NCBI GenBank assembly: GCA_950072105.1
Contig: CATMOE010000093.1
Span: 1-10,302, forward strand
Direction of reading: 5' to 3'
Source: an uncultured Dehalococcoidia bacterium
Lineage (GTDB): Bacteria > Chloroflexota > Dehalococcoidia > Lucifugimonadales > UBA3495
Length of the DNA stretch: 10,302 bases
Positions 253 through 10,302 of the stretch are shown here, piece by piece. The position numbers were made by a program, and so were the translations under genes. Under the pieces are notes generated by a model. The model ran no database searches, had not been told where the DNA came from, and saw only the letters and a program-made list of their open reading frames with translations. How positions within the stretch are numbered: the stretch's first letter is position 1; each line of letters begins with the position of its first letter.

Positions 253-403
253 CATTTAGTGGCCTTTCCACGAAATTGACCTGAACCAGTAGACTCTTTC
301 AAATTCAGCTCCGTACGGTGGTACGCCGGGCAACTTACCCGGAAATTTCACCGTCGTAATTGAGCAGGCCAACGCCCGGTGGTGGCGGTTGGGGAGTGTG
401 TAG

Positions 404-3400
404 ATGCGGAACCTGGCGACGCCGCTCAGTGCGGCACTAACAATCTTCCTGGTAGCGATTTTCCTGTCGGCTACCGGTTTGCTTCAATTGGCTTCCGCGC
501 CTCCAGTCCAAGCCGCCGACGACCACGGCGACTATCGCAATGAGGCAACCCCCATCAGCACCTCGGGCGGGCAAGTTTCGGGCAATATCGACGCCTCCAA
601 CACCGGGATCGACGTGGACTATTTCTCCTTCCAGGCCCAACGGGGCGTTCGATACACGTTCATGTTGGATATGGGGACCGTAGAATCAGCGAATCTCCAA
701 GTGGTCAACTCCATCACCCGTGGCATCGGCAGCTCGCCAGGCCAGTTCGCCTACGAGAGGACCGGACAGCGGCTGGTCGATTGGATAGCACGAACGAACG
801 AGACCTACTTCATCGAAGTGTCCGCGAATTGGGATTACCTGACTGGGCAGGTTTTTCTGGGAACTTATACCTTGAGGATCAGCGCCGATACCTCTCTTCT
901 GGACCGCCACAGTGATATCCGGTCCGCGTCCACTCCGATGGCCTTCGGGAACCAATACCAGGGAGCGATCAGCCCCTGGACCAATCAGCCCGACATCGAC
1001 GTAGGGGTACATGGCGGAGATGATGAAGACTTCTTCTCCTTCCAGGCAAGCCGTGGCGTTAAATATACGGTAGATGCTGAACTGGGAACGGCGACCGGCC
1101 TAACCATCTCTGTGCTCACTTCGGTAGGAGAACTCGAACTCTCAAACGACGGCATCGGCATCTCTCTGGATTGGGTCGCTCCGGCCACCCGCCTTTACCA
1201 CGTGGTCGTGTCGGGCACCAGCCGCGTGAGGGAACCCGTGGGAACCTACGCCATCAAGGTCACTGCCGACACCTCTCTGGTCGACCGGCACGCGGAACGG
1301 CGTGAAGACGCCACCGCCATCAGCTTTGGCAACGCCCATCAAGGGGCGATCAGCCCGGCTGACGATCTAGATTTCTTCTCTTTTCAGACGAAAAGAGGGG
1401 TCATGTACAGGATCGTGATCGAGCCTGGAACCGCTGAAGCCGTAGAGATCGCAGTACACAAACCCGTGGTAGGCACGGATGCCTCCAACAGCGGCATTGG
1501 CACAAGCCTCGATTGGCTGGCCCCGGCCGACGGGACCTACTACATCGTTCTTTCCGCGTCGGCCCAGGTTCGTAACGGTGTCGGATCGTACAACCTGCGT
1601 GTCGTCGCCGATAACTCGTTGATAGACCGTCACAGCGGCAGCCCCGACGATGCGACTGGTATAAATTTCGGAAGCGCGTTGGCCGGCGCCATCAGCCCGG
1701 CCAACGACCAGGATTTCTTCGGATTCTTGGCTAAACGGGGTGTGAGCTATACCGTTGAGTCAGCATTGGGCAGCGCCGTGGCCGTGAACCTATCGATCAC
1801 CAACTCCGATTCCAGGATCGAAGCATCCAACGGTGGCTTGGGTTCCACACTGGAATGGGTCGCGCCCAACGACGGCAATTACTTCATTTCCGTGTCCGCC
1901 CCCAGCCAAGTAGCAAGCCCCATCGGCACCTATACCGTTAAACTAGAAGCGGACAATATCCTACTGGACCGCCACAGTGAAACCCGCAACGACGCCACCC
2001 CCGTTAACTTCGGCAACGCCACGGCCGGCGCGGTCAGCCCACCGGGAGACCTGGATTACTTCTCATTCTCGGCCGAACGCGGCGTCAAATATGGCATCCA
2101 AGTTGAGTTGGGCAACGTCAAAGGCATATCAATCGTCGTCGAAGACCCGGACGGCGCCATCCTGGCGGCCAGCGATGGCATATCCAAGGATCTGGAATGG
2201 ATCGCGCCGGACCCCGGAACCTACTATATCGTCATCAGCGCTCCCGCCCAACTCATAGAGGGCATCGGCACCTACACCATCAAAGTCGAAGCTGACACGT
2301 CTCTCAGCGACCGCCACGCCGAAACCGCGGGAGGGGCCACGCAGACCGGCTTTGGTAACGCCGTGGCCGGCGCGATAAGCCCGATCGACGACGTGGACTA
2401 CTTCTCTTTCCAGGGCCGAAGGGGCGTGAAATACACCTTCGAATTGGACTACGGTACCACGTCAGGGGTATCCCTAACGGTGCAAGAAAAAGACCCCGGA
2501 CCCGATCTGATCGCCAGTAACTACGGCGAGGGTTCGGACGTCACTTGGATATCCACGGACACCGAGACGTATTACGTCGTGATCTCCAGATCGCCACGGC
2601 TGGCCAACCCCATCGGAACCTACTCGCTGACGATCAGGTCCGAATTCAATCTTGAGGACCGGCATCCGGACATACCCACGTGGGCAACCCAGATAGGCTT
2701 CGGCAATGCTATCGCCGGAGCAGTCAGTCCCGCCGACGACTACGACTATTTCTCTTTCCCCGCCGAGAGGGACGAGACTTATACATTGCTGGTCAATCTA
2801 GGCACGGCCACGGCAGTGCGGTTCGAGGTGGTCAACTACGCTACCGGCTTTAGTAAATCCAATTACGGTTCCGGCACAAGCCTGCGGTGGACTGCCCCGG
2901 CCACGGGCGCCTACGTTCTGGTGATCTCGGCCGCGGACCAAGCCTCCGACCCGGTGGGAACTTACCAAGTCGTTTTGACCAGAGGGGGAATACCGATCCC
3001 GCCGCCATTGGAGCTTAAGCCTGTTCCTACGGCTACACCAACGCCGGTGCCAACGGCCACACCCCAACCAACACCGGCGCCAGTTGCCACACCAGTACCG
3101 GCGGCGACAACCGTACCCGTGGCCATCCCGGCCGAGGCTATCCTGACCGTAGAGTCTAGGACCGCTCGGCAGGGGACGACCGTGCTAGTCCCGGTCCGCT
3201 TGGAAAAAGCCGGAGATCTCAGCAGGCTGGAATTCATTCTGAACTACAACCCGTCCATCGTTGAGGTCGTGAATGTTTACCAAGGTTCTCGAACTTCAAC
3301 GACAGCATTTAGCTACAACGCCGAGACTCCGGGTGTCATCCGCTTTGGAACCACCGCGGCCAGGGGCGTGAATGGCGACGGTTCGGCTGCGGTCGTAGAG

Positions 3401-3697
3401 TTCAGAGTCATCGGGCCAAGCGGCAGTTCCAGTCCCATCACGGTCACCGGTTCCAATATAGGAGACTCCCGCGACCGGATCAGGACCATCAATCTCGTTC
3501 CGGGGAAATTGGCTGTCGACAACCCGATAGCCGGAGACGGTAACGGCGACGGCAACATTACCGCATTGGACGCGCTCATCGCCTTGCGTATGTTCGTTGG
3601 ATTAGCCGAAGAAGACCTGGTCATGGACATAAACAAGGACGGCCACGTTACACCTGACGACGCCCGCCAACTTCTGGCGATGGCCCGTCAAGGCTAG
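404..3697 (+). CDS. Secreted modular surface protein: signal peptide + 7 PPC-like (pre-peptidase C-terminal) repeats + Pro/Thr linker + cohesin + dockerin type I-like domain
   Basis: 1097-aa ORF with GGGGAG RBS at 391-396. Hydrophobic signal peptide ends VQA. Repeats carry D(D/R)H..AT...G.IS...D.D(Y/F)F.F...GV.Y...W.AP...Y...GTY. PTATPTP linker. Cohesin signature VPVRL..LEFILNYNP..GVNGDG..VVEFRV. Duplicated Ca-binding loops DGNGDGNITALD and DINKDGHVTPDD. Confidence 0.93.
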   Translation: MRNLATPLSAALTIFLVAIFLSATGLLQLASAPPVQAADDHGDYRNEATPISTSGGQVSGNIDASNTGIDVDYFSFQAQRGVRYTFMLDMGTVESANLQVVNSITRGIGSSPGQFAYERTGQRLVDWIARTNETYFIEVSANWDYLTGQVFLGTYTLRISADTSLLDRHSDIRSASTPMAFGNQYQGAISPWTNQPDIDVGVHGGDDEDFFSFQASRGVKYTVDAELGTATGLTISVLTSVGELELSNDGIGISLDWVAPATRLYHVVVSGTSRVREPVGTYAIKVTADTSLVDRHAERREDATAISFGNAHQGAISPADDLDFFSFQTKRGVMYRIVIEPGTAEAVEIAVHKPVVGTDASNSGIGTSLDWLAPADGTYYIVLSASAQVRNGVGSYNLRVVADNSLIDRHSGSPDDATGINFGSALAGAISPANDQDFFGFLAKRGVSYTVESALGSAVAVNLSITNSDSRIEASNGGLGSTLEWVAPNDGNYFISVSAPSQVASPIGTYTVKLEADNILLDRHSETRNDATPVNFGNATAGAVSPPGDLDYFSFSAERGVKYGIQVELGNVKGISIVVEDPDGAILAASDGISKDLEWIAPDPGTYYIVISAPAQLIEGIGTYTIKVEADTSLSDRHAETAGGATQTGFGNAVAGAISPIDDVDYFSFQGRRGVKYTFELDYGTTSGVSLTVQEKDPGPDLIASNYGEGSDVTWISTDTETYYVVISRSPRLANPIGTYSLTIRSEFNLEDRHPDIPTWATQIGFGNAIAGAVSPADDYDYFSFPAERDETYTLLVNLGTATAVRFEVVNYATGFSKSNYGSGTSLRWTAPATGAYVLVISAADQASDPVGTYQVVLTRGGIPIPPPLELKPVPTATPTPVPTATPQPTPAPVATPVPAATTVPVAIPAEAILTVESRTARQGTTVLVPVRLEKAGDLSRLEFILNYNPSIVEVVNVYQGSRTSTTAFSYNAETPGVIRFGTTAARGVNGDGSAAVVEFRVIGPSGSSSPITVTGSNIGDSRDRIRTINLVPGKLAVDNPIAGDGNGDGNITALDALIALRMFVGLAEEDLVMDINKDGHVTPDDARQLLAMARQG
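518..2989 (+). repeat. Seven tandem ~114-128 aa PPC-like protein repeats
   Basis: DDH/DRH-initiated units start at 518, 902, 1283, 1625, 1967, 2309 and 2657 (spacings 384, 381, 342, 342, 342, 348 nt). Confidence 0.88.
3140..3517 (+). other. Cohesin domain of the large surface protein
   Basis: ILTVESRTARQGTTVLVPVRL...LEFILNYNPSIVEVVNVYQG...NGDGSAAVVEFRVIG...PGKLAV follows the cohesin beta-sandwich pattern. Confidence 0.85.
3533..3694 (+). other. Dockerin domain (C-terminal)
   Basis: GDGNGDGNITALDALIALRMFVG...DINKDGHVTPDDARQLLAMA: two DxNxDGx(I/V)xxxD loops, each followed by an amphipathic helix. Confidence 0.9.
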
Positions 3698-3706
3698 GAA
3701 GCAAAC

Positions 3707-4387
3707 ATGAGATTTTGGCTGGAAATGGGATTATTCGCTCTGTCGGACCATTGGAAATGGGCCGTTGGCGCGGCAACGGTCTTATTGGTGGTAGTCGTTG
3801 GCACTCTCTTTTTAGTCGTTCTGAGGAGTGACACTGCCGAGGCCGGCCCGGCTCCTTCAGTGATTCTTGAACCCACGGCAACCCCGGACGAGGCCTCGAC
3901 TCCGATCCCCACATCGCCGCCTAAGGTGATCGCGACTAGGTCACCCACGGCAGTCCCAACGCTGTCTCCGCAGCTAGCAGATCCCGTGGTGTTACCTTCA
4001 ACGGTCAACGTGCCGATCTATCTCACCGGCGCGAAAAACGTGGGAAGCCTGGAATTCGTTTTGACCTACGACCCAACCGTTCTAGAGGTGTCAGATGTTG
4101 AAGCAGGCGGTTTGGCTCAGAACTCCTTGTTCGACTTCGGAGTGCGCGTGCCAGGCCGTCTGTGGGCAGGGCTCATAGACACTGACGGGATCAACGGCGA
4201 CGGCCCGCTGGCGGTAGTTTCCTTCAAAGTCATCGGTCCGGGATCCAGCGCCAGCCAGTTGACTCTGGAAAACGTTGCCACGTACGATGCCAGGTCCTTG
4301 CTGGACATCCTGACGGATGCCACATCGGGTAGCTTTACCGTTGATGGCCCCACCTTGACCGCCCCGGTCCTCGCTTTTCCTCGTTAG
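3707..4387 (+). CDS. Membrane-anchored single-cohesin protein (N-terminal TM helix + Pro/Thr linker + cohesin)
   Basis: 226-aa ORF 9 nt after the previous stop, AGGA RBS. Hydrophobic WAVGAATVLLVVVVGTLFLVVL. PT-rich linker. Cohesin VNVPIYL..LEFVLTYDPTVLEV..GINGDGPLAVVSFKVIG aligns without gaps to the upstream cohesin. Confidence 0.88.
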   Translation: MRFWLEMGLFALSDHWKWAVGAATVLLVVVVGTLFLVVLRSDTAEAGPAPSVILEPTATPDEASTPIPTSPPKVIATRSPTAVPTLSPQLADPVVLPSTVNVPIYLTGAKNVGSLEFVLTYDPTVLEVSDVEAGGLAQNSLFDFGVRVPGRLWAGLIDTDGINGDGPLAVVSFKVIGPGSSASQLTLENVATYDARSLLDILTDATSGSFTVDGPTLTAPVLAFPR

Positions 4388-4548
4388 CCGCCGGCTGTGT
4401 CCGGCCCGGACGATTCTCTTGTTGGAACGTCCTCTAGCCGAGCCGGATTCTTGTGTTAAGCAGATCCGGTCCTTAGCAGATAGTTGTCCCTACGTGATTG
4501 GCTTTCCCGTGCTACATTGTCCATTGAGACTTGTATGAAGGACGTCAA

Positions 4549-6084
4549 TTGACCGATCTCTGTCACTATGGCCTCGTCCTAAGATTGATGCCGGGAACGA
4601 TTTTGGCGTCGGCGCTGATCCTGACCGGCTTACTGGTGTCACTGGCCTGCTCCAACACGTCCGGCTCCATTGATACGGCTACGCCCACGCGCCTTCCCAC
4701 CCTCACCGCGATCCCTACCCCCACCGCTAATCTCCTACCCAGTCCGTCCCGCACTGTTTACTCCTCCGGCGCAACCGAACCTACGCCGGAGAAACTAGCT
4801 AGCCCCGCAGAGCCTGCGGCGACGCAACCGGCTACACCTGCTCCTGAACCCACGAACCGGCCTGTCCATAGCGATCCGGTCGCTCCGGCGGCTATAGGTT
4901 CTACAGAAGCGCGGACGGCCGATCCTCGATTGACCCGAATCGTCCAGAAAATATCGGTGGGAGTGGCTGAGACCCGTGGTCTCACTTTCCTGGAGCCGTT
5001 AGCGCCGCAGTTAATCACTCGCCCGGAGTTAACCGAATACCTGGCCGCAATCATCGACGCCGAAGACCAGGACGAATTGGCGCGTCTTCAGGAGTTGTAT
5101 TGGCTCCTGGGACTCCTGGACCCGTCAGTGGAGCTTTATGATTTGTTCCTGGATCTGCTGGGGGAGCAGGTCCTGGGATTGTTTAATCTGGAGACTGACG
5201 AACTACTCGTAGTCGCTGAAACCCTACCCCTGGACACCGCCGGGAAATTGACCATGGCTCACGAGTTGGTCCATGCTTTGCAGCAGCAACGATTCGATGC
5301 CCGGCGACTGGTGGAAGAATCGGAAACCAATCAAGACCGGGAATTGGCGATGACAGCTCTGCTTGAGGGCGACGCCACCGTGGCTTCAGGCCTATACGCT
5401 GCCGCCAATCTGAGTATGGCCGAAATGTTGGACCTGCTGCCAAAGGCGGAAGATTCGGAGGTACAGGTGTTTCAAAGCGCCCCGCCGGTGATTCAGAAAA
5501 CCCTGCTTTCCCCCTACCAAGCGGGCGCTGAGTTCGTGTCTTCGGTTCAGCAGGCGCCCGGCATCTGGCGTCAGGTGAACCAGATCTACTCTCGGCCTCC
5601 AGTTTCCACCGAGCAGATATTGCATCCGGCGAAATACAAGTCGGGAGAGAACCCTATACCGGTGTCACTGCCTCCCGGAGGTCCGGCGATCCAGGAAGAC
5701 TGGGAATTGGTTATGGAGGATGTCCTGGGCGAGTTTCTTCTGCGCACTTACTTGGAATCCAGTTTGCCCCGTCCACAAGCCGTGAAGGCCGCCAGCGGCT
5801 GGGGAGGAGACCGTTTTCGGCTGCTAAGAGACGATTCCGGACGCCGCCTGTTCGTCGTGGTGATCGTGTGGGACACAATCATCGATGCTCGTGAGTTCTT
5901 TGAGGCTTATAAGGAATTTACCGGTCGGGCCCAACGATGGGAAAGCCATGAAGAGGACGGAAACATGGCGGTTTGGCACACGCCCGGCCGGTCGGTACTT
6001 CTTGAGTTGAAGGGTGAGATTACGTTGATCGGCATCGCACCCGGCCAGGATACCCTAGACTTGATCGCCAAGGATTTTCCTTAA
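4549..6084 (+). CDS. Putative lipoprotein zinc metallopeptidase-like surface protein (HExxH...E; resembles Hvo_1808-type proteins)
   Basis: Lipobox VSLA-C after a hydrophobic stretch. Long Pro/Thr/Ala stalk. TMAHELVHALQQQ (5260-5274) and downstream ALLEGDAT, PxSTEQILHP and AASGWGGD motifs. Start uncertain: TTG 4549 has a GAAGGA RBS; TTG 4531 and ATG 4588 are alternatives. Confidence 0.8.
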   Translation: MTDLCHYGLVLRLMPGTILASALILTGLLVSLACSNTSGSIDTATPTRLPTLTAIPTPTANLLPSPSRTVYSSGATEPTPEKLASPAEPAATQPATPAPEPTNRPVHSDPVAPAAIGSTEARTADPRLTRIVQKISVGVAETRGLTFLEPLAPQLITRPELTEYLAAIIDAEDQDELARLQELYWLLGLLDPSVELYDLFLDLLGEQVLGLFNLETDELLVVAETLPLDTAGKLTMAHELVHALQQQRFDARRLVEESETNQDRELAMTALLEGDATVASGLYAAANLSMAEMLDLLPKAEDSEVQVFQSAPPVIQKTLLSPYQAGAEFVSSVQQAPGIWRQVNQIYSRPPVSTEQILHPAKYKSGENPIPVSLPPGGPAIQEDWELVMEDVLGEFLLRTYLESSLPRPQAVKAASGWGGDRFRLLRDDSGRRLFVVVIVWDTIIDAREFFEAYKEFTGRAQRWESHEEDGNMAVWHTPGRSVLLELKGEITLIGIAPGQDTLDLIAKDFP

Positions 6085-6213: not shown

Positions 6214-7095
6214 ATGAACATCCACCTTGTAGACGGAACTTACGAGCTTTTCCGTGCGCATTTCGCCATGCCTCCGGTAGCCGCGCCCGATGGACGGCCG
6301 GTCAGCGCGGTCCGAGGAATCATCCAAACCATGCTGATGCTACTCCGGGAAGACGGTGTTACCCACGTGGCCTGTGCCTTCGACCACGTGGTCGAGTCCT
6401 TTCGGAATGACATGTTTGACGGCTACAAAACCGGCGCCGGCACGCCCGAAGATCTAATGAGCCAATTCGATCTGGCAGAACGAGCCGTCGCCGCCTTGGG
6501 TGTTGTTGTTTGGCCCATGGTGGAGTTTGAAGCCGACGATGCCTTGGCAACCGCCGCGGAAAAATGGCGGGACGCCCCGAACGTGGAGCAGGTTGTGATC
6601 TGCTCCCCGGACAAGGACCTAACTCAAATGGTGCGCGGCTCCCAGGTTGTCTGTCTCGACAGGCGACGGAAAGTTACTTTGGACGACGCCGGCGTGCGGG
6701 AGAAATTCGGAGTGCCTCCCGCGTCTATCCCCGATTATCTGGCTTTAGTTGGAGATGCCGCCGACGGGATTCCCGGCGTGCCCAGATGGGGGGCCAAAAC
6801 TGCGGCCCAGATGTTGGACCGGTACGGCCACCTGGAAAACATCCCTGATGATTGGGAACAATGGGAGGTCCGGCCCCGGGGCGCCCAAGCCGTGGCAGCC
6901 AGCTTGGCGGAGCACCGTGAGGATGCCGTGCTTTACAAACGGCTGGCTACGCTCCGGTTAGACGTGCCCTTGGCGGAAACCCTGGAACAACTACGTTGGG
7001 AAGGCGTTCCCAAGCTAGAGTATCAGGCCTTGTGCGCCGAGCTAGGGTTTGAAAGCTTGATGGACTTGCCCAGCCGCTGGACCGGAGAGGGGTAG
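6214..7095 (+). CDS. Stand-alone 5'-3' exonuclease / flap endonuclease (PolA N-terminal-like, PIN + H3TH)
   Basis: Motifs HLVDG, AFD, FRNDMFDGYK, EADD, SPDKDLTQ and DYLALVGDAADGIPGVPRWGAKTA. The protein ends at 293 aa with no polymerase domain. Confidence 0.93.
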   Translation: MNIHLVDGTYELFRAHFAMPPVAAPDGRPVSAVRGIIQTMLMLLREDGVTHVACAFDHVVESFRNDMFDGYKTGAGTPEDLMSQFDLAERAVAALGVVVWPMVEFEADDALATAAEKWRDAPNVEQVVICSPDKDLTQMVRGSQVVCLDRRRKVTLDDAGVREKFGVPPASIPDYLALVGDAADGIPGVPRWGAKTAAQMLDRYGHLENIPDDWEQWEVRPRGAQAVAASLAEHREDAVLYKRLATLRLDVPLAETLEQLRWEGVPKLEYQALCAELGFESLMDLPSRWTGEG

Positions 7096-7181: not shown

Positions 7182-7598
7182 ATGGCAACGTTGACGATGG
7201 CCGAGACGGACATAATTCTCGCTGCGGCCAAGGCTAAAGTGCTTGAGATGGGCGCCAAGATGAGCGTTTCCGTGGTTGACCCCCGGGGCGACCTACTCGG
7301 CATGTTCCGCACCGATGGCGCGTCCTGGAGGACGCCGGCGATATCACGTGCGAAAGCGCTATCTTCCGCCTGCTTCGAACGTCCCAGCGGCGACCTGACA
7401 GAGAACGCGATGGCGCCGGTGTTCAGAGGCCTGATGGCGATGGAAGGGGGCCACATGATCCCCGGCCAAGGCGCACTGCCGGTCTTCAAGAACGGCGAGA
7501 TTGTCGGGGCGGTCGGCGGCAGCGGCGGCACTGCCCAGCAGGATGAAGACGCGTCCAAGGTGGGGATCGACGCCGTTGGGCTAACTACCACCCCTTAA
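7182..7598 (+). CDS. GlcG/HbpS-family heme-binding protein (DUF336)
   Basis: GGAGG RBS. Motifs VSVVDPRG, RTDGA, AKA, GALPVFKNGEIVGAVGGSGG and QDE. Confidence 0.9.
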   Translation: MATLTMAETDIILAAAKAKVLEMGAKMSVSVVDPRGDLLGMFRTDGASWRTPAISRAKALSSACFERPSGDLTENAMAPVFRGLMAMEGGHMIPGQGALPVFKNGEIVGAVGGSGGTAQQDEDASKVGIDAVGLTTTP

Positions 7599-7637
7599 CG
7601 AGTCCGTTGACCCAAATGGGATGTCTAGAGCCTTAAA

Positions 7638-7718
7638 CCGTCTAACCGGCGAAGGCCGGTGTCCAGATAAGCCGTTCTGGGGAAACTTTCTGGATTCCGG
7701 CCTGCGCCGGAAAGACGG
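7638..7718. repeat. REP-like inverted repeat pair (GTC..CCGGCGAAGGCCGG..TCCAG / CTGGATTCCGGCCTGCGCCGGAA.GAC) between convergent genes
   Basis: 30-nt arms at 7638-7667 and 7689-7718, complementary at 25/30 positions. Each arm has its own internal hairpin. Confidence 0.85.
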
Positions 7719-7782
7719 GAATCTACCGGAAAGACGGGAATCTACCGGAATGACGAGAGGCTGCCGGAATGGCGGCGGGCTG
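7707..7782. repeat. 19-bp tandem repeat, 4 units starting CCGGAA
   Basis: Units at 7707 and 7726 are identical (CCGGAAAGACGGGAATCTA). Unit at 7745 is CCGGAATGACGAGAGGCTG and unit at 7764 is CCGGAATGGCGGCGGGCTG. Confidence 0.85.
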
Positions 7783-7831
7783 ATTGAGGTGGCGGCAGCG
7801 GACCCGGTTGGGGCGCCTAGTTCAGAAAGAA

Positions 7832-8932
7832 TCAGCGGCAGGCGTCACGCACCGCTTGGGACATGGCCGCCAGCCGCGGAAGGTTGGATCCGTCTTCGCG
7901 ATAGCCGTTAGTGATGTACGCCATCGCCAATCCCGAATCCGGGTCGGCCCAACCCACCGAAGTCCCCGCCCCTCCGTGGCCGAAGGTGCGCACATCCTCG
8001 GTTACTGAGGAACCCATACGGGGGTCGCCCAGGGAGAAACCCAAGGAACGCTTGGTTCGCCGTTCGTTGGTTAGGTCCATCCCTTCGACTTGCAGCGATG
8101 TAACCTCAGCCACCGTCTCCGGCGCGAATATCTTCACTCCATCCAGCGAGCCTCCACCTTCCATCATGGCGTAAAACCGGGCGATGTCGCGGGCCGTGGC
8201 GATTCCGCCGCCCGCCGGATGCACGGCTTGATGCACCTCCGGCTTGTTATACATGGAAACCTGGAAGGGATGGTCGCAATCGTCGGTGGTATGTTCCTTG
8301 GAGACTCGACCCTCCAACTCCGCCGGCAGACCTACGTAGGTGTCGTTCATATCCAGCCGGCCGGTCACTTCTTCCCGCAGAAACTGGCGGAAGGGACGCC
8401 CATCGATCCGGGCAACCAGCTCCCCAATGACCCAGCCGAAGTTTCTAGGGTGATACGCCAGTACCTTGCCCGCCGGATAGTCGGGCTTGATCTCCTCCAT
8501 CGCCTGAACCACTTTGTCCCAGTCCTGCCATTTGTCCCAGGTTAGTTCTGGCGGGGTCTCCGGAAAGCCTCCCTGATGGGTCAGAACATGTCTGATAGTA
8601 ACGTCGCCCTTGCCTTTCTTGGCAAATCCGGGCCAATATTCGGCAACCGGGTCGTCCCATCCAAGTTGCCCCCGTTCCCAAAGAATGTGGATGCAGGCAG
8701 CAGCCAAGGGTTTGGTGGAGGAATACAGGATGAACATGGTGTCGCTGGACACGGGGAGACCCGCATCAGCGTCGGCCTCGCCGCCAAAGAGATCCAGAAC
8801 GGGTTTACCGTGCCGGTACACCGCCAGCGCCGAGCCAGGATGGATCCCCTGTTGGATCTGCTCCTGGAACAGGTCTTCCACCCTATCCAGACTCTTGGGG
8901 TCCATCTGGACGGTGTCAGCGGCGACTACCAT
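7832..8932 (-). CDS. Serine hydrolase, beta-lactamase class C / family VIII esterase (EstA-like)
   Basis: SxxK (YSSTK), PVAEYWPGFA, TIRHVLTHQGG, YHP tyrosine motif and FGHGGAG..GWADP. GGAGG RBS. No signal peptide. Confidence 0.92.
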   Translation of the reverse strand: MVVAADTVQMDPKSLDRVEDLFQEQIQQGIHPGSALAVYRHGKPVLDLFGGEADADAGLPVSSDTMFILYSSTKPLAAACIHILWERGQLGWDDPVAEYWPGFAKKGKGDVTIRHVLTHQGGFPETPPELTWDKWQDWDKVVQAMEEIKPDYPAGKVLAYHPRNFGWVIGELVARIDGRPFRQFLREEVTGRLDMNDTYVGLPAELEGRVSKEHTTDDCDHPFQVSMYNKPEVHQAVHPAGGGIATARDIARFYAMMEGGGSLDGVKIFAPETVAEVTSLQVEGMDLTNERRTKRSLGFSLGDPRMGSSVTEDVRTFGHGGAGTSVGWADPDSGLAMAYITNGYREDGSNLPRLAAMSQAVRDACR

Positions 8933-9041
8933 TCACTTCCTCCAGTTATATGGCCGTGCGGTGTCTACTTTTACCGGGGGTACCGTACGACCGTTAGCGT
9001 GGAAGTCTCCCCGTTCCGTGGGACGATCCACGAGCCGGGTT

Positions 9042-9050
9042 AGTATACCA
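9042..9050 (-). promoter_or_regulatory. Extended -10 promoter candidate for the serine hydrolase
   Basis: TGGTATACT on the minus strand (TGn + TATACT). Confidence 0.5.
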
Positions 9051-9076
9051 TTCGGGGCGGCGGGAATTCGACGCCG

Positions 9077-9388
9077 CTAGCCGACCTTTTTGAAGATCAA
9101 GTGGGTGCGGTTTGAAGTGTGGGGGCGGATCTGACTTGCCCAATCTCCCTTATCCGACTCAGCAATCCAGGCAGCCGACTGGGGGATATCCGGCGAATCG
9201 ATCGCATAAAGGGCAAGGTACGTGGGTATCCCGTCCACATCTGCAGACTCCAACTTGAAGCGAGTACACGATTCCACGCCCGGAACGGTCAGTATGTTGG
9301 GCACGTGCTGGGTGTCGTAGATGCGGTTGAAATCCGCCTCCTTGTCGGCGGGGATGTCCATTTGAACAATGTAAAGATAGTCAGCCAT
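9077..9388 (-). CDS. DUF4286/EthD-like small alpha+beta barrel protein
   Basis: YIVQMDIP..KEADFNRIYDTQHVPNILTVPGVESCTRF...YLALYAIDSP pattern. AAGGAG RBS. Start is ATG 9388 or TTG 9394. Confidence 0.8.
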   Translation of the reverse strand: MADYLYIVQMDIPADKEADFNRIYDTQHVPNILTVPGVESCTRFKLESADVDGIPTYLALYAIDSPDIPQSAAWIAESDKGDWASQIRPHTSNRTHLIFKKVG

Positions 9389-9463
9389 AGCCAATTAAGC
9401 TCCTTTTGAAGATTGGGTGCGGGTCTCGGTCCAATGCCAGTCAGCCATCGGAGCCGCGGGGAG

Positions 9464-9493
9464 ATTATAGGCCGAGCGCTCGCGTTCACACAA
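9464..9493 (-). promoter_or_regulatory. Putative sigma70 promoter of the DUF4286-like gene, divergent from the tRNA promoter
   Basis: Minus strand TTGTGT (9493-9488), 18 nt, TATAAT (9469-9464). Confidence 0.5.
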
Positions 9494-9511
9494 GACGGAA
9501 CGTATGCCGCC

Positions 9512-9540
9512 TTGACGCCCTAATAGGTGCTTGATAGACT
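9512..9540 (+). promoter_or_regulatory. sigma70 promoter of tRNA-Val
   Basis: TTGACG (9512-9517), 17 nt, TAGACT (9535-9540) with a TG extension; 9 nt upstream of the tRNA. Confidence 0.8.
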
Positions 9541-9549
9541 GCGATTGAG

Positions 9550-9626
9550 GGGCGGTTAGCTCAGCTGGTTAGAGTACTTGCTCGACACGCAAGAGGTCAG
9601 TGGTTCGAGTCCACTACCGCCCACCA
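9550..9626 (+). tRNA. tRNA-Val (GAC)
   Basis: Acceptor stem GGGCGGT/ACCGCCC, discriminator A, encoded CCA. D-arm GCTC/GAGT. Anticodon stem CTTGC/GCAAG with loop TCGACAC (GAC at 9584-9586). T-arm AGTGG-TTCGAGT-CCACT. Confidence 0.97.
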
Positions 9627-9756: not shown

Positions 9757-10197
9757 TCAGTTCAACACCTCGCGAACCTTCCGCAATAGGTCCGATGGCA
9801 TGAAGGGCTTCTGCAGATAAGGCAGGCTGGCGTTGGAAGGGTCTCCGATTATCGGATTTTCCTCGGTATAGCCCGACGTTATCAAGATTTTTATTTCCGG
9901 GCGTGATTCACGGAGGCAACGCGCCAGTTCTATCCCGCCCATGCGCGGCATCACGACATCGGTTACCAAAAGATCGATCATCCCAACGGGATGACTCTCG
10001 GTCAACCGCAGCGCTTCTTCCCCGTTAGACGCCTCCAGAGCGTTGTAACCGTTATCGGCAAGCACTCTGGAGCACATTGACCTAATCATCGGCTCGTCTT
10101 CCACCAAAAGTATAGTTTCATTGCCGCTGGGTGGAGCCTCACTTGCCTGATCTTCAGGAATCACTAAGGCTTCTGGGGAAGAACATGGGAGGAACAC
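9757..10197 (-). CDS. Response-regulator receiver domain; C-terminal part of a CckA-like hybrid sensor histidine kinase (apparently truncated)
   Basis: ETILLVEDE, DLLVTDVVMP (phosphoacceptor Asp), TSGY and KPF. In-frame upstream codons read YSEIGEGTAFQVFLP, the last strands of an HATPase domain, so GTG 10197 is probably not the original start. Confidence 0.85.
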   Translation of the reverse strand: MFLPCSSPEALVIPEDQASEAPPSGNETILLVEDEPMIRSMCSRVLADNGYNALEASNGEEALRLTESHPVGMIDLLVTDVVMPRMGGIELARCLRESRPEIKILITSGYTEENPIIGDPSNASLPYLQKPFMPSDLLRKVREVLN

Positions 10198-10228
10198 TTG
10201 AAATGCGGTCCCTTCCCCGATCTCGCTG

Positions 10229-10302
10229 TAGGCGTTCAGCGATAATGGGACACTTTTAAGGGGAGAAAAACATGAGAGTGGTGGTGGGTTTGGACTCCTG
10301 GT
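10229..10302. mobile_element. Possible end of an insertion (IS-like) interrupting the kinase gene
   Basis: Kinase similarity stops at about 10230-10239. No minus-strand frame beyond this gives the expected GxGLGL...GG ATP-lid. No transposase or partner IR is visible in the window. Confidence 0.3.

Follow-up and report, generated by a model that had tools for sequence, protein, structure and literature searches.

The closest described counterpart of the system reported here is a pair of adjacent genes in Archaeoglobus fulgidus, ORF2375 and ORF2376, in which one product has a cohesin directly followed by a C-terminal dockerin and the other has a lone cohesin. Here, we analyze a 10,302-nucleotide stretch of DNA (the window) from an uncultured marine Dehalococcoidia bacterium of the SAR202 group, in which a gene for a large protein with seven PPC-like repeats, a cohesin, and a dockerin (P0001) is followed by a gene for a small protein with a transmembrane (TM) helix and a cohesin (P0002). 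By its testable features this pair is of the A. fulgidus ORF2375/ORF2376 type; what is new is the bacterial host, the PPC passenger, and a membrane anchor with a rearranged cohesin. The window is the entire contig CATMOE010000093.1 (C93) of the source genome (GCA_950072105.1, hereafter G000), which is 4.08 Mb, 92% complete, and 6% contaminated, so that an absence from it means "not found".

Voronov-Goldman, in 2011, is said to have proposed homo- and hetero-oligomers for the A. fulgidus pair. The A. fulgidus Coh76-Doc75 interaction (dockerin, ORF2375 432-506; cohesin, ORF2376 29-162) is strong and specific (PMC9705933), designer cellulosomes match "cohesin 2375" with "dockerin 2375" (PMC3520109), and the modules have been reused (PMC4973527, PMC4959524, and PMC6394049). 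Cohesin primers in PMC3520109, translated by eye, give VPPKTT and IVSQEEA, which match the ends of the 2XDH stretch (TTIIAG and FRIVS), and a dockerin primer gives AEEANKG. Hence, the cohesin solved as 2XDH is very probably the internal one of ORF2375, with the dockerin close behind it as in our locus, and that dockerin has been used with both A. fulgidus cohesins. The original prediction, a reading of the window's letters alone, had drawn the A. fulgidus parallel, and the structures bear it out: 2XDH is the top PDB match, by sequence and by fold, of both the internal cohesin of P0001 (E 3e-12; Z 19.8, root-mean-square deviation [rmsd] 1.8 A, 136 aligned) and the anchor cohesin of P0002 (E 4e-15; Z 17.0, rmsd 1.3 A, 113 aligned). 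2XDH has a K-x-G-x-A motif in beta6, like the internal cohesin, yet is overall closer to the anchor cohesin (37% versus 29%). The two systems differ in that ours is bacterial, with a 1097-amino-acid (aa) protein carrying seven PPC repeats instead of one of ~506 aa. The TM-plus-Pro/Thr-spacer anchor and an anchor cohesin without strand 1 may also set ours apart.

Clostridial single-cohesin anchors (SdbA, OlpA, OlpC, and ScaE) likewise tether a dockerin-ended protein through a lone cohesin on the cell surface. In contrast to these, our locus has a membrane anchor, with no SLH domain found and no sortase signal, has neither enzymes nor a multi-cohesin scaffoldin, and has a cohesin that is type-I-like rather than type II/III (Z 17-20 versus 13-16). 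Monovalent adaptor scaffoldins such as R. flavefaciens ScaC share the arrangement of one cohesin and one dockerin per chain (as defined in PMC4959524), but they recruit a different dockerin class, whereas G000 yielded no other dockerin. A two-gene unit with a single dockerin is also known from Cellulosilyticum lentocellum, ClcC/ClcD (PMC13487519); that unit consists of a CBM-cohesin protein and a GH5-dockerin protein, with one cohesin, and a chain is impossible, whereas here we find two cohesins, a membrane anchor, and no enzyme (CBM, carbohydrate-binding module; GH, glycoside hydrolase). The function of non-cellulosomal cohesins and dockerins is treated as open in PMC5244752 and PMC9012536.

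Architecture of the two proteins

The genes lie on the same strand, 9 nt apart, with the following features:

391..396, +, Shine-Dalgarno-like GGGGAG preceding P0001 (duplex -7.0 kcal/mol versus -4.2 for P0002)
404..3697, +, big-subunit gene P0001 (1097 aa): signal peptide, seven PPC-like repeats, Pro/Thr linker, cohesin, dockerin
404..514, +, predicted cleaved Sec signal peptide (residues 1-37), ending VQA, with no lipobox
518..2983, +, seven PPC/collagenase-CBD-like (CBD, collagen-binding domain) beta-sandwich repeats, starting at 518, 902, 1283, 1625, 1967, 2309, and 2657
2987..3121, +, Pro/Thr-rich linker (54% P+T), predicted disordered
3125..3523, +, internal cohesin (residues 908-1040): full nine-strand type-I-like fold; conserved R919, R980, G982, A984
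3530..3694, +, C-terminal dockerin: a pair of intact Ca-loop repeats at a spacing of 30 aa; conserved first helix, variable positions 10/11 in the second repeat
3707..4387, +, anchor gene P0002 (226 aa): helix, TM helix, Pro/Thr/Ser linker, cohesin
3710..3820, +, N-terminal helix (residues 2-13) and predicted TM helix (residues 16-38)
3827..3997, +, Pro/Thr/Ser spacer
3998..4348, +, anchor cohesin, N-terminal strand 1 missing; conserved S114, E116, W153, L198, D200
4349..4384, +, C-terminal P-x-L/I-x-F strand (P220 0.98 and F224 0.83 in 90 rows)

The original prediction had read P0001 as a secreted protein with a cohesin, a terminal dockerin, and seven PPC-like domains, and P0002 as a TM helix-Pro/Thr linker-cohesin protein encoded 9 nt downstream. 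Pfam hidden Markov models (HMMs) agree with this reading. In P0001, Cohesin (PF00963; 54.2 bits, residues 914-1016; cut-off 24.1), Dockerin_1 (PF00404; 25.3 bits, residues 1043-1090; cut-off 22.9), and PPC (58.5 bits, above the curated cut-off) were all recovered; in P0002, Cohesin scored 53.0 bits (residues 98-212; cut-off 24.1). Neither protein reached any NCBIfam family cut-off, and ESM Atlas matches for the pair were PPC and cohesin clusters only.

Secretion of P0001 is predicted from its sole hydrophobic segment (residues 8-26). A cysteine within 15 aa ahead of the first repeat occurs in 0/111 homologs, an xxA site is found there in 90/111, and A37 is almost invariant. A weak internal hydrophobic segment (1.61-1.81) appears in 14/120 big-protein homologs, and a clear anchor in none.

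An AlphaFold2 (AF2) model of P0001, built on a 112-row alignment (predicted local distance difference test [pLDDT] 84.7), shows seven beta domains, a disordered linker at 862-906, the cohesin, and two dockerin helices; its predicted template modeling score (0.44) is low, so the domain arrangement is not fixed by the model. D-[DR]-H opens each of the seven repeats (residues 39, 167, 294, 408, 522, 636, and 752; length 114-128 aa), and a custom HMM scored all seven. Their fold is that of the ColG/ColH collagen-binding domains (PPC, PF04151; Z 14.4-14.6; for 2O8O, Z 14.6, rmsd 2.2 A, 103 aligned), with which their acidic Ca-site motifs align, and conserved Asp pairs mark predicted Ca sites. Unlike ColG/ColH, P0001 has seven tandem copies, no peptidase domain, and a histidine in D-[DR]-H. 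It also has V-I-S-R where ColG has F-I-Y-K, whose aromatics presumably act in collagen binding, so that collagen binding is not implied. Conserved inserts in repeats 1 and 2 contain invariant residues (W127 and T131; S190-P191-W192), and repeat 5 is absent in 49% of big-protein rows. Together, these observations suggest a conserved tip, in repeats 1-2, on a variable-length stalk of 5-8 repeats that would be stiffened by Ca. The repeats might bind particles, polymers, or cells, and the original prediction had suggested adhesion or polymer capture as a possible role. Their mean entropy (1.54-1.76 bits) is similar to that of the cohesin (1.75).

The internal cohesin matches clostridial type I cohesins at Z 17-20 and type II at about 13. 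Across 112 big proteins, its putative binding face is conserved at S941 (0.65), G943 (0.63), R980 (0.92), G982 (0.89), and A984 (0.78), and R919 (0.97) ends strand 1. The Ca-loop positions of the dockerin are conserved in the same rows (D1045, N/D1047, D1049, D1056; D1075, N/D1077, D1079, D1086). Of its two modeled helices (1054-1064 and 1084-1093), the first is conserved (A1054 0.90, L1055 0.77, A1060 0.96, and R/K1062) while positions 1084-1085 vary, and the dockerin is thus asymmetric. No dockerin chain is among the fold matches listed for P0001, a list filled by cohesin matches.

The anchor protein has a sole hydrophobic segment at residues 20-38. Its AF2 model (90 rows; pLDDT 82.6) shows helices at 2-13 and 16-38, the spacer, and a cohesin that begins at strand 2. 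Solved cohesins align to this model only from their residue 15-17, and the anchor profile alignment begins at position 17 of the internal cohesin; strand 1 is missing in sequence order. Two short strands at the C terminus (216-218 and 221-223; pLDDT 88-93) have no counterpart aligned in any solved cohesin, and we suggest that the P-x-L/I-x-F strand may take the slot of the missing strand 1. In 26 SAR202-like anchors, S114, E116, W153, A195, L198, and D200 are conserved at 0.88-1.00. The 90 rows of the anchor family divide into 52 with an N-terminal hydrophobic segment, 15 with an internal one, 16 with a lipobox-like signal, and seven with none of these. The anchors with an internal TM segment (P0293, P0294, P0308, P0321, and 11 similar rows) have an N-terminal coiled coil, with a CdvA-like Pfam match in P0293.

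The Shine-Dalgarno sequence of the big gene is stronger than that of the anchor gene in 26 of 27 scorable loci, all kin (mean -9.0 versus -5.9 kcal/mol; 12/39 loci were dropped for want of an assignable start), whereas in G000 the first gene of close pairs is the stronger in 59/138 by crude gene calls. Promoter (4 versus 3.2) and terminator (9 versus 7.6) scans were at chance level. Contigs from four RNA runs cover both genes, which indicates presence in RNA libraries and gives no ranking of expression levels; depth was ~1-17 on the pair versus ~8-64 on neighbors at 7200-9600, the pair not lying above its neighbors. Two such contigs span the P0001/P0002 junction (X2, 3503-4571; X3, 3211-3783), although contigs cannot prove one transcript. 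We rejected a fusion of the two proteins by stop read-through: the two reading frames agree here (TAG plus 9 nt), but the gap is a multiple of three in only 6 of 13 measurable cases, with gaps of 2-92 nt.

Census, conservation, and modularity of the pair

A genome-wide census found, above Pfam cut-offs, one dockerin and two cohesins in G000, all in this window, the dockerin being that of P0001. Custom HMMs run on 44,358 six-frame segments of G000 turned up no additional dockerin, cohesin, or repeat of this kind. One regular-expression match elsewhere in the genome, in a secreted protein that is serine-protease-like by eye and has a Pro/Thr linker and a Ca-loop-like motif (C75:9525-11135, -), was ruled out as a dockerin by HMM. 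GH5, GH9, and CBM3 were not found in G000, and neither were the transglycosylase PF00912 and SLH, with positive controls in each case. As the original prediction had noted, the window holds no recognizable glycoside hydrolase or CBM: no such family matched any of the eight window proteins scanned.

These results bear on whether the locus could be a true or miniature cellulosome organizing polysaccharide-degrading enzymes. Both cohesins are type-I-like in fold, as would fit. However, a scaffoldin has at least two cohesins (definition from PMC13487519), and the two found here sit on two proteins; the sole dockerin found is on a PPC protein rather than fused to a glycoside hydrolase; and neither a dockerin-bearing enzyme nor a multi-cohesin scaffoldin was found in G000. 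With GH5, GH9, and CBM3 also not found, we conclude that this is no cellulosome; the cellulosome reading is extremely improbable. The locus also departs from other known arrangements. Type II cohesins match at Z ~11-13, below type I, which together with the lack of an SLH hit in G000 sets it apart from type II X-dockerin/SLH anchoring. A second class of dockerin clients, as adaptor scaffoldins have, was not found in G000, and 12 of 13 relatives have one dockerin. P0001 ends in the dockerin, with no C-terminal hydrophobic segment of the sortase-pilus kind, although sortase genes themselves were not searched.

Full-length homologs of the big gene occur in 13/35 other genomes of the family and in 0/24 other genomes of the order, and several near-complete single-contig genomes lack the pair. 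Named homologs are from SAR202, Chloroflexi, or Dehalococcoidia, in line with the earlier assignment to a probable Chloroflexota organism. In all 13 relatives that carry the big gene, the anchor gene is immediately downstream of it (12 complete copies; that of G015 runs into the contig end), and each relative has two cohesins and one dockerin, except G010, which has two dockerins. In a GTDB scan with the anchor alignment, a dockerin-ended gene lies immediately upstream in 37 of 38 loci, which partly repeat the 13 relatives; the remaining locus begins at a contig edge. Repeat number in these 38 loci is six in 22, seven in nine, five in one, and eight in one, with three cut by contig ends and two without repeats. 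Among the best 80 of 98 metagenome loci, a same-strand dockerin accompanies the anchor in 71, eight are at edges, and L230 has none. One locus with an archaeal record title (L122) is a typical six-repeat pair and is probably mislabeled or mis-binned. The anchor is rare outside this family (2/400 genomes of an even phylum sample).

The passenger can be exchanged. In L121 (Dehalococcoidia) and L124 (Caldilineae), a different domain with TSP3 repeats replaces the PPC array. Passenger swaps in L121, L124, and L241 leave the cohesin-dockerin end and the anchor gene in place, and the passenger of G233, from another family, is different again. The beta6 R-F-G-F-A motif and the cohesin-dockerin end are kept through the swaps, and a lipobox-like signal replaces the TM helix of the anchor in L121, L124, and L241. 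A quick tree built from 56 cohesin domains places 23 of the 24 internal cohesins on a single branch (Shimodaira-Hasegawa-like approximate likelihood ratio test [SH-aLRT] 99) and 25 anchor-type rows on another (88). The swaps and the tree together indicate that the two-cohesin design predates the PPC passenger, and that it is the dockerin, not the repeats, to which the internal cohesin belongs.

Docking, chain growth, and rival explanations

We propose that P0002 would sit in the cell membrane with its cohesin held outward on the Pro/Thr spacer, and that P0001, a predicted secreted protein, would bind this cohesin through its C-terminal dockerin in a Ca-dependent manner. The cohesin of P0001 itself could then take the dockerin of the next copy, giving an anchored head-to-tail chain from which the seven-repeat arms would hang. 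P0001 has no anchor of its own and can therefore remain on the cell only through a partner, for which the two cohesins are the only candidates found. Docking of the dockerin on the anchor is, judged by sequence comparison, highly probable. Since the census turned up no second dockerin, the internal cohesin would most likely take that of another P0001 molecule as its ligand; given a link of five residues, its face is unlikely to be bound in cis. The chain is further favored by conservation of the internal face, in which R980, G982, and A984 align with the conserved W153, G155, and I157 of the anchor, by the A. fulgidus precedent, and weakly by the stronger Shine-Dalgarno sequence of the big gene. 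Chain growth through the internal cohesin is nonetheless an even call, and the anchored chain as a whole, though the best overall explanation we have, is as apt to be wrong as right. The original prediction of a small anchor on which the large protein docks gains comparative support from the sole dockerin, the two cohesins, the conserved adjacency, and the interchangeable TM and lipoprotein anchors; what it left unexplained is the cohesin of P0001 itself.

Several observations weigh against the chain. The two cohesin faces differ strongly (S-x-G and R-x-G-x-A in the internal cohesin, S-x-E and W-x-G-x-I in the anchor), so one dockerin would need to fit two different surfaces. This comparison takes strands 3, 5, 6, and 8 as the dockerin-binding face, as we presume from cellulosomes. 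In place of the family's S, G, and L, P0001 of the window carries R941, E943, and N1018, and the internal cohesin varies in beta8. Conservation of R919 and the short five-residue link to the dockerin could also mean a purely structural dyad. A conserved third gene, for a cap or for chain-length control, was not found among the neighbors in 32 loci; the loci are kin and not independent; Shine-Dalgarno strength is a poor guide to the ratio of the two proteins; and another dockerin may be unassembled in a genome that is 92% complete. Covariation was examined between cohesin and dockerin (effective number of sequences [Neff] 52) and between the C-terminal strand and core of the anchor (Neff 80), and the top pairs, which look phylogenetic, count neither for nor against the chain.

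The same differences between the faces would fit a one-to-one display, close to the original prediction, in which the dockerin binds the anchor only and the internal cohesin is either a structural spacer that supports the dockerin much as the X module does in type II dyads, or the receptor of an unrecognized non-dockerin partner. Such a display is also favored by the constant fusion of the internal cohesin 5-8 residues ahead of the dockerin, with R919 kept (0.97), and by the stricter conservation of the anchor face in SAR202-like rows (S114, E116 0.94, and W153 1.00; 26 rows). However, beta6 R-x-G-x-A is retained from class to class and through the passenger swaps; in A. fulgidus, the homologous internal cohesin (2375) serves as a partner of its own dockerin; and the X-Doc chains 3KCP and 4FL4 align to the model over only about the length of the cohesin (146-149 columns). 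We regard one-to-one display as possible but doubtful. Ca-dependent beta-repeat arrays are common in S-layers, and P0001 might instead form the outer protein layer of peptidoglycan-free cells, with P0002 as membrane stalk and the repeats providing lateral lattice contacts. Conservation of the repeats is close to that of the cohesin, and cultured SAR202 bacteria, which are monoderm and lack peptidoglycan genes, have an S-layer-like outer layer (PMC10444878). A coat of this kind is nevertheless unlikely, given its patchy occurrence (13/35 family and 0/24 other order genomes), a repeat number that varies from 5 to 8, and a replaceable passenger. Still less probable is that both cohesins capture dockerin proteins of other cells or species, as bridges or scavengers, with P0001 mainly released. 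Cross-species cohesin-dockerin binding is documented (PMC13487519), and cell-contact roles have been proposed for dockerins and cohesins of ANME (PMC9012536 and PMC5244752), but here the dockerin and anchor genes are almost never apart and the first dockerin helix is highly conserved in the family, as for a cognate pair.

The anchored head-to-tail chain can be extended to a broader proposal, which we put forward tentatively and with somewhat less than even confidence. The pair could build a sortase-free, non-covalent surface filament with a cohesin-dockerin backbone: a membrane primer with a strand-permuted cohesin would start the chain, and each subunit would dock and offer a new cohesin while carrying a swappable passenger arm (a PPC array, TSP3 repeats, or other domains). 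Such filaments would be in use among peptidoglycan-free SAR202 as well as other Chloroflexota, and the asymmetric dockerin may engage the two cohesins through different helices.

Related loci, neighboring genes, and significance

A second, unrelated system occurs in 11/35 family genomes, as a secreted protein of ~410-430 aa that ends in a different dockerin type and a mostly unlinked anchor-Pro/Thr-cohesin gene (L050-L068, in G007, G009, G012, G013, G014, G018, G019, G020, G025, and G033; and G035). It was found in none of the 14 genomes with the window's pair. We discounted mutual exclusion of the two systems as independent evidence: 10 of the 11 genomes fall in one branch of a quick RpoB tree (SH-aLRT 80), and G025 is a 552-aa unplaced row. 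The two-gene logic recurs in different sequence families: L055:508-1506 (G009) is one case, and in L069:4813-6456 (G054) a passenger-cohesin-dockerin gene has a lipoprotein-like Pro/Thr-cohesin gene directly behind it. In L242:1571-4529 (G074), a passenger-cohesin-dockerin gene is followed by one encoding a signal, cohesin, TM helix, Pro-rich region, and C-terminal domain; this last domain looks FHA-like by its motif, and the anchor might signal into the cell. In L044:7477-10470 (G057), similar PPC repeats are fused to a lipoprotein-like signal and Pro/Thr linker in a genome without cohesin or dockerin matches, so the passenger is displayed without a connector. Multi-cohesin proteins of the same cohesin family also exist: P0243, from a Nitrososphaerota archaeon, has five cohesins, and P0253 and P0246 end in a dockerin. 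Among 10 distant homologs looked up by cluster, one could be assigned a taxon.

The rest of the window contains the following features:

2-77, 4.5 copies of a 17-bp unit, opening the contig
4531-6084, +, lipoprotein-like protein with Pro/Thr linker and HExxH; Hvo_1808 family similarity below cut-off (152.9 versus 200 bits); adjoins the pair in 3/13 relatives
6214-7095, 5'-3' exonuclease
7182-7598, +, HbpS-like gene
7707-7755, 2.6 copies of a 19-bp unit, flanked by convergent genes; X3 and X4 run contigs have one unit fewer
7832-8932, beta-lactamase-family protein
9077-9394, DUF4286-like protein
9550-9626, tRNA-Val(GAC)
9757-10302, receiver domain, cut by the contig end

The HbpS-like gene is the commonest real neighbor of the pair (22/32 loci), probably through inherited gene order.

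In a literature search that ran mostly without subscription papers, neither this SAR202 pair nor a natural cohesin-dockerin chain was found described, and the use of cellulosome-type connectors for surface chains may not yet have been shown in any cell. The pair, with one dockerin, two cohesins, and two genes in dozens of genomes, is about the simplest natural non-cellulosomal case, and designer scaffolds could draw on it for a new connector. If our reading is true, a self-extending cohesin-dockerin chain would be a type of surface polymer not found described in the literature searched. For SAR202 bacteria, which are abundant in the dark ocean and lack peptidoglycan, the pair offers a candidate mechanism for attaching large proteins to the surface; such a cell would display them without sortase or SLH domains.

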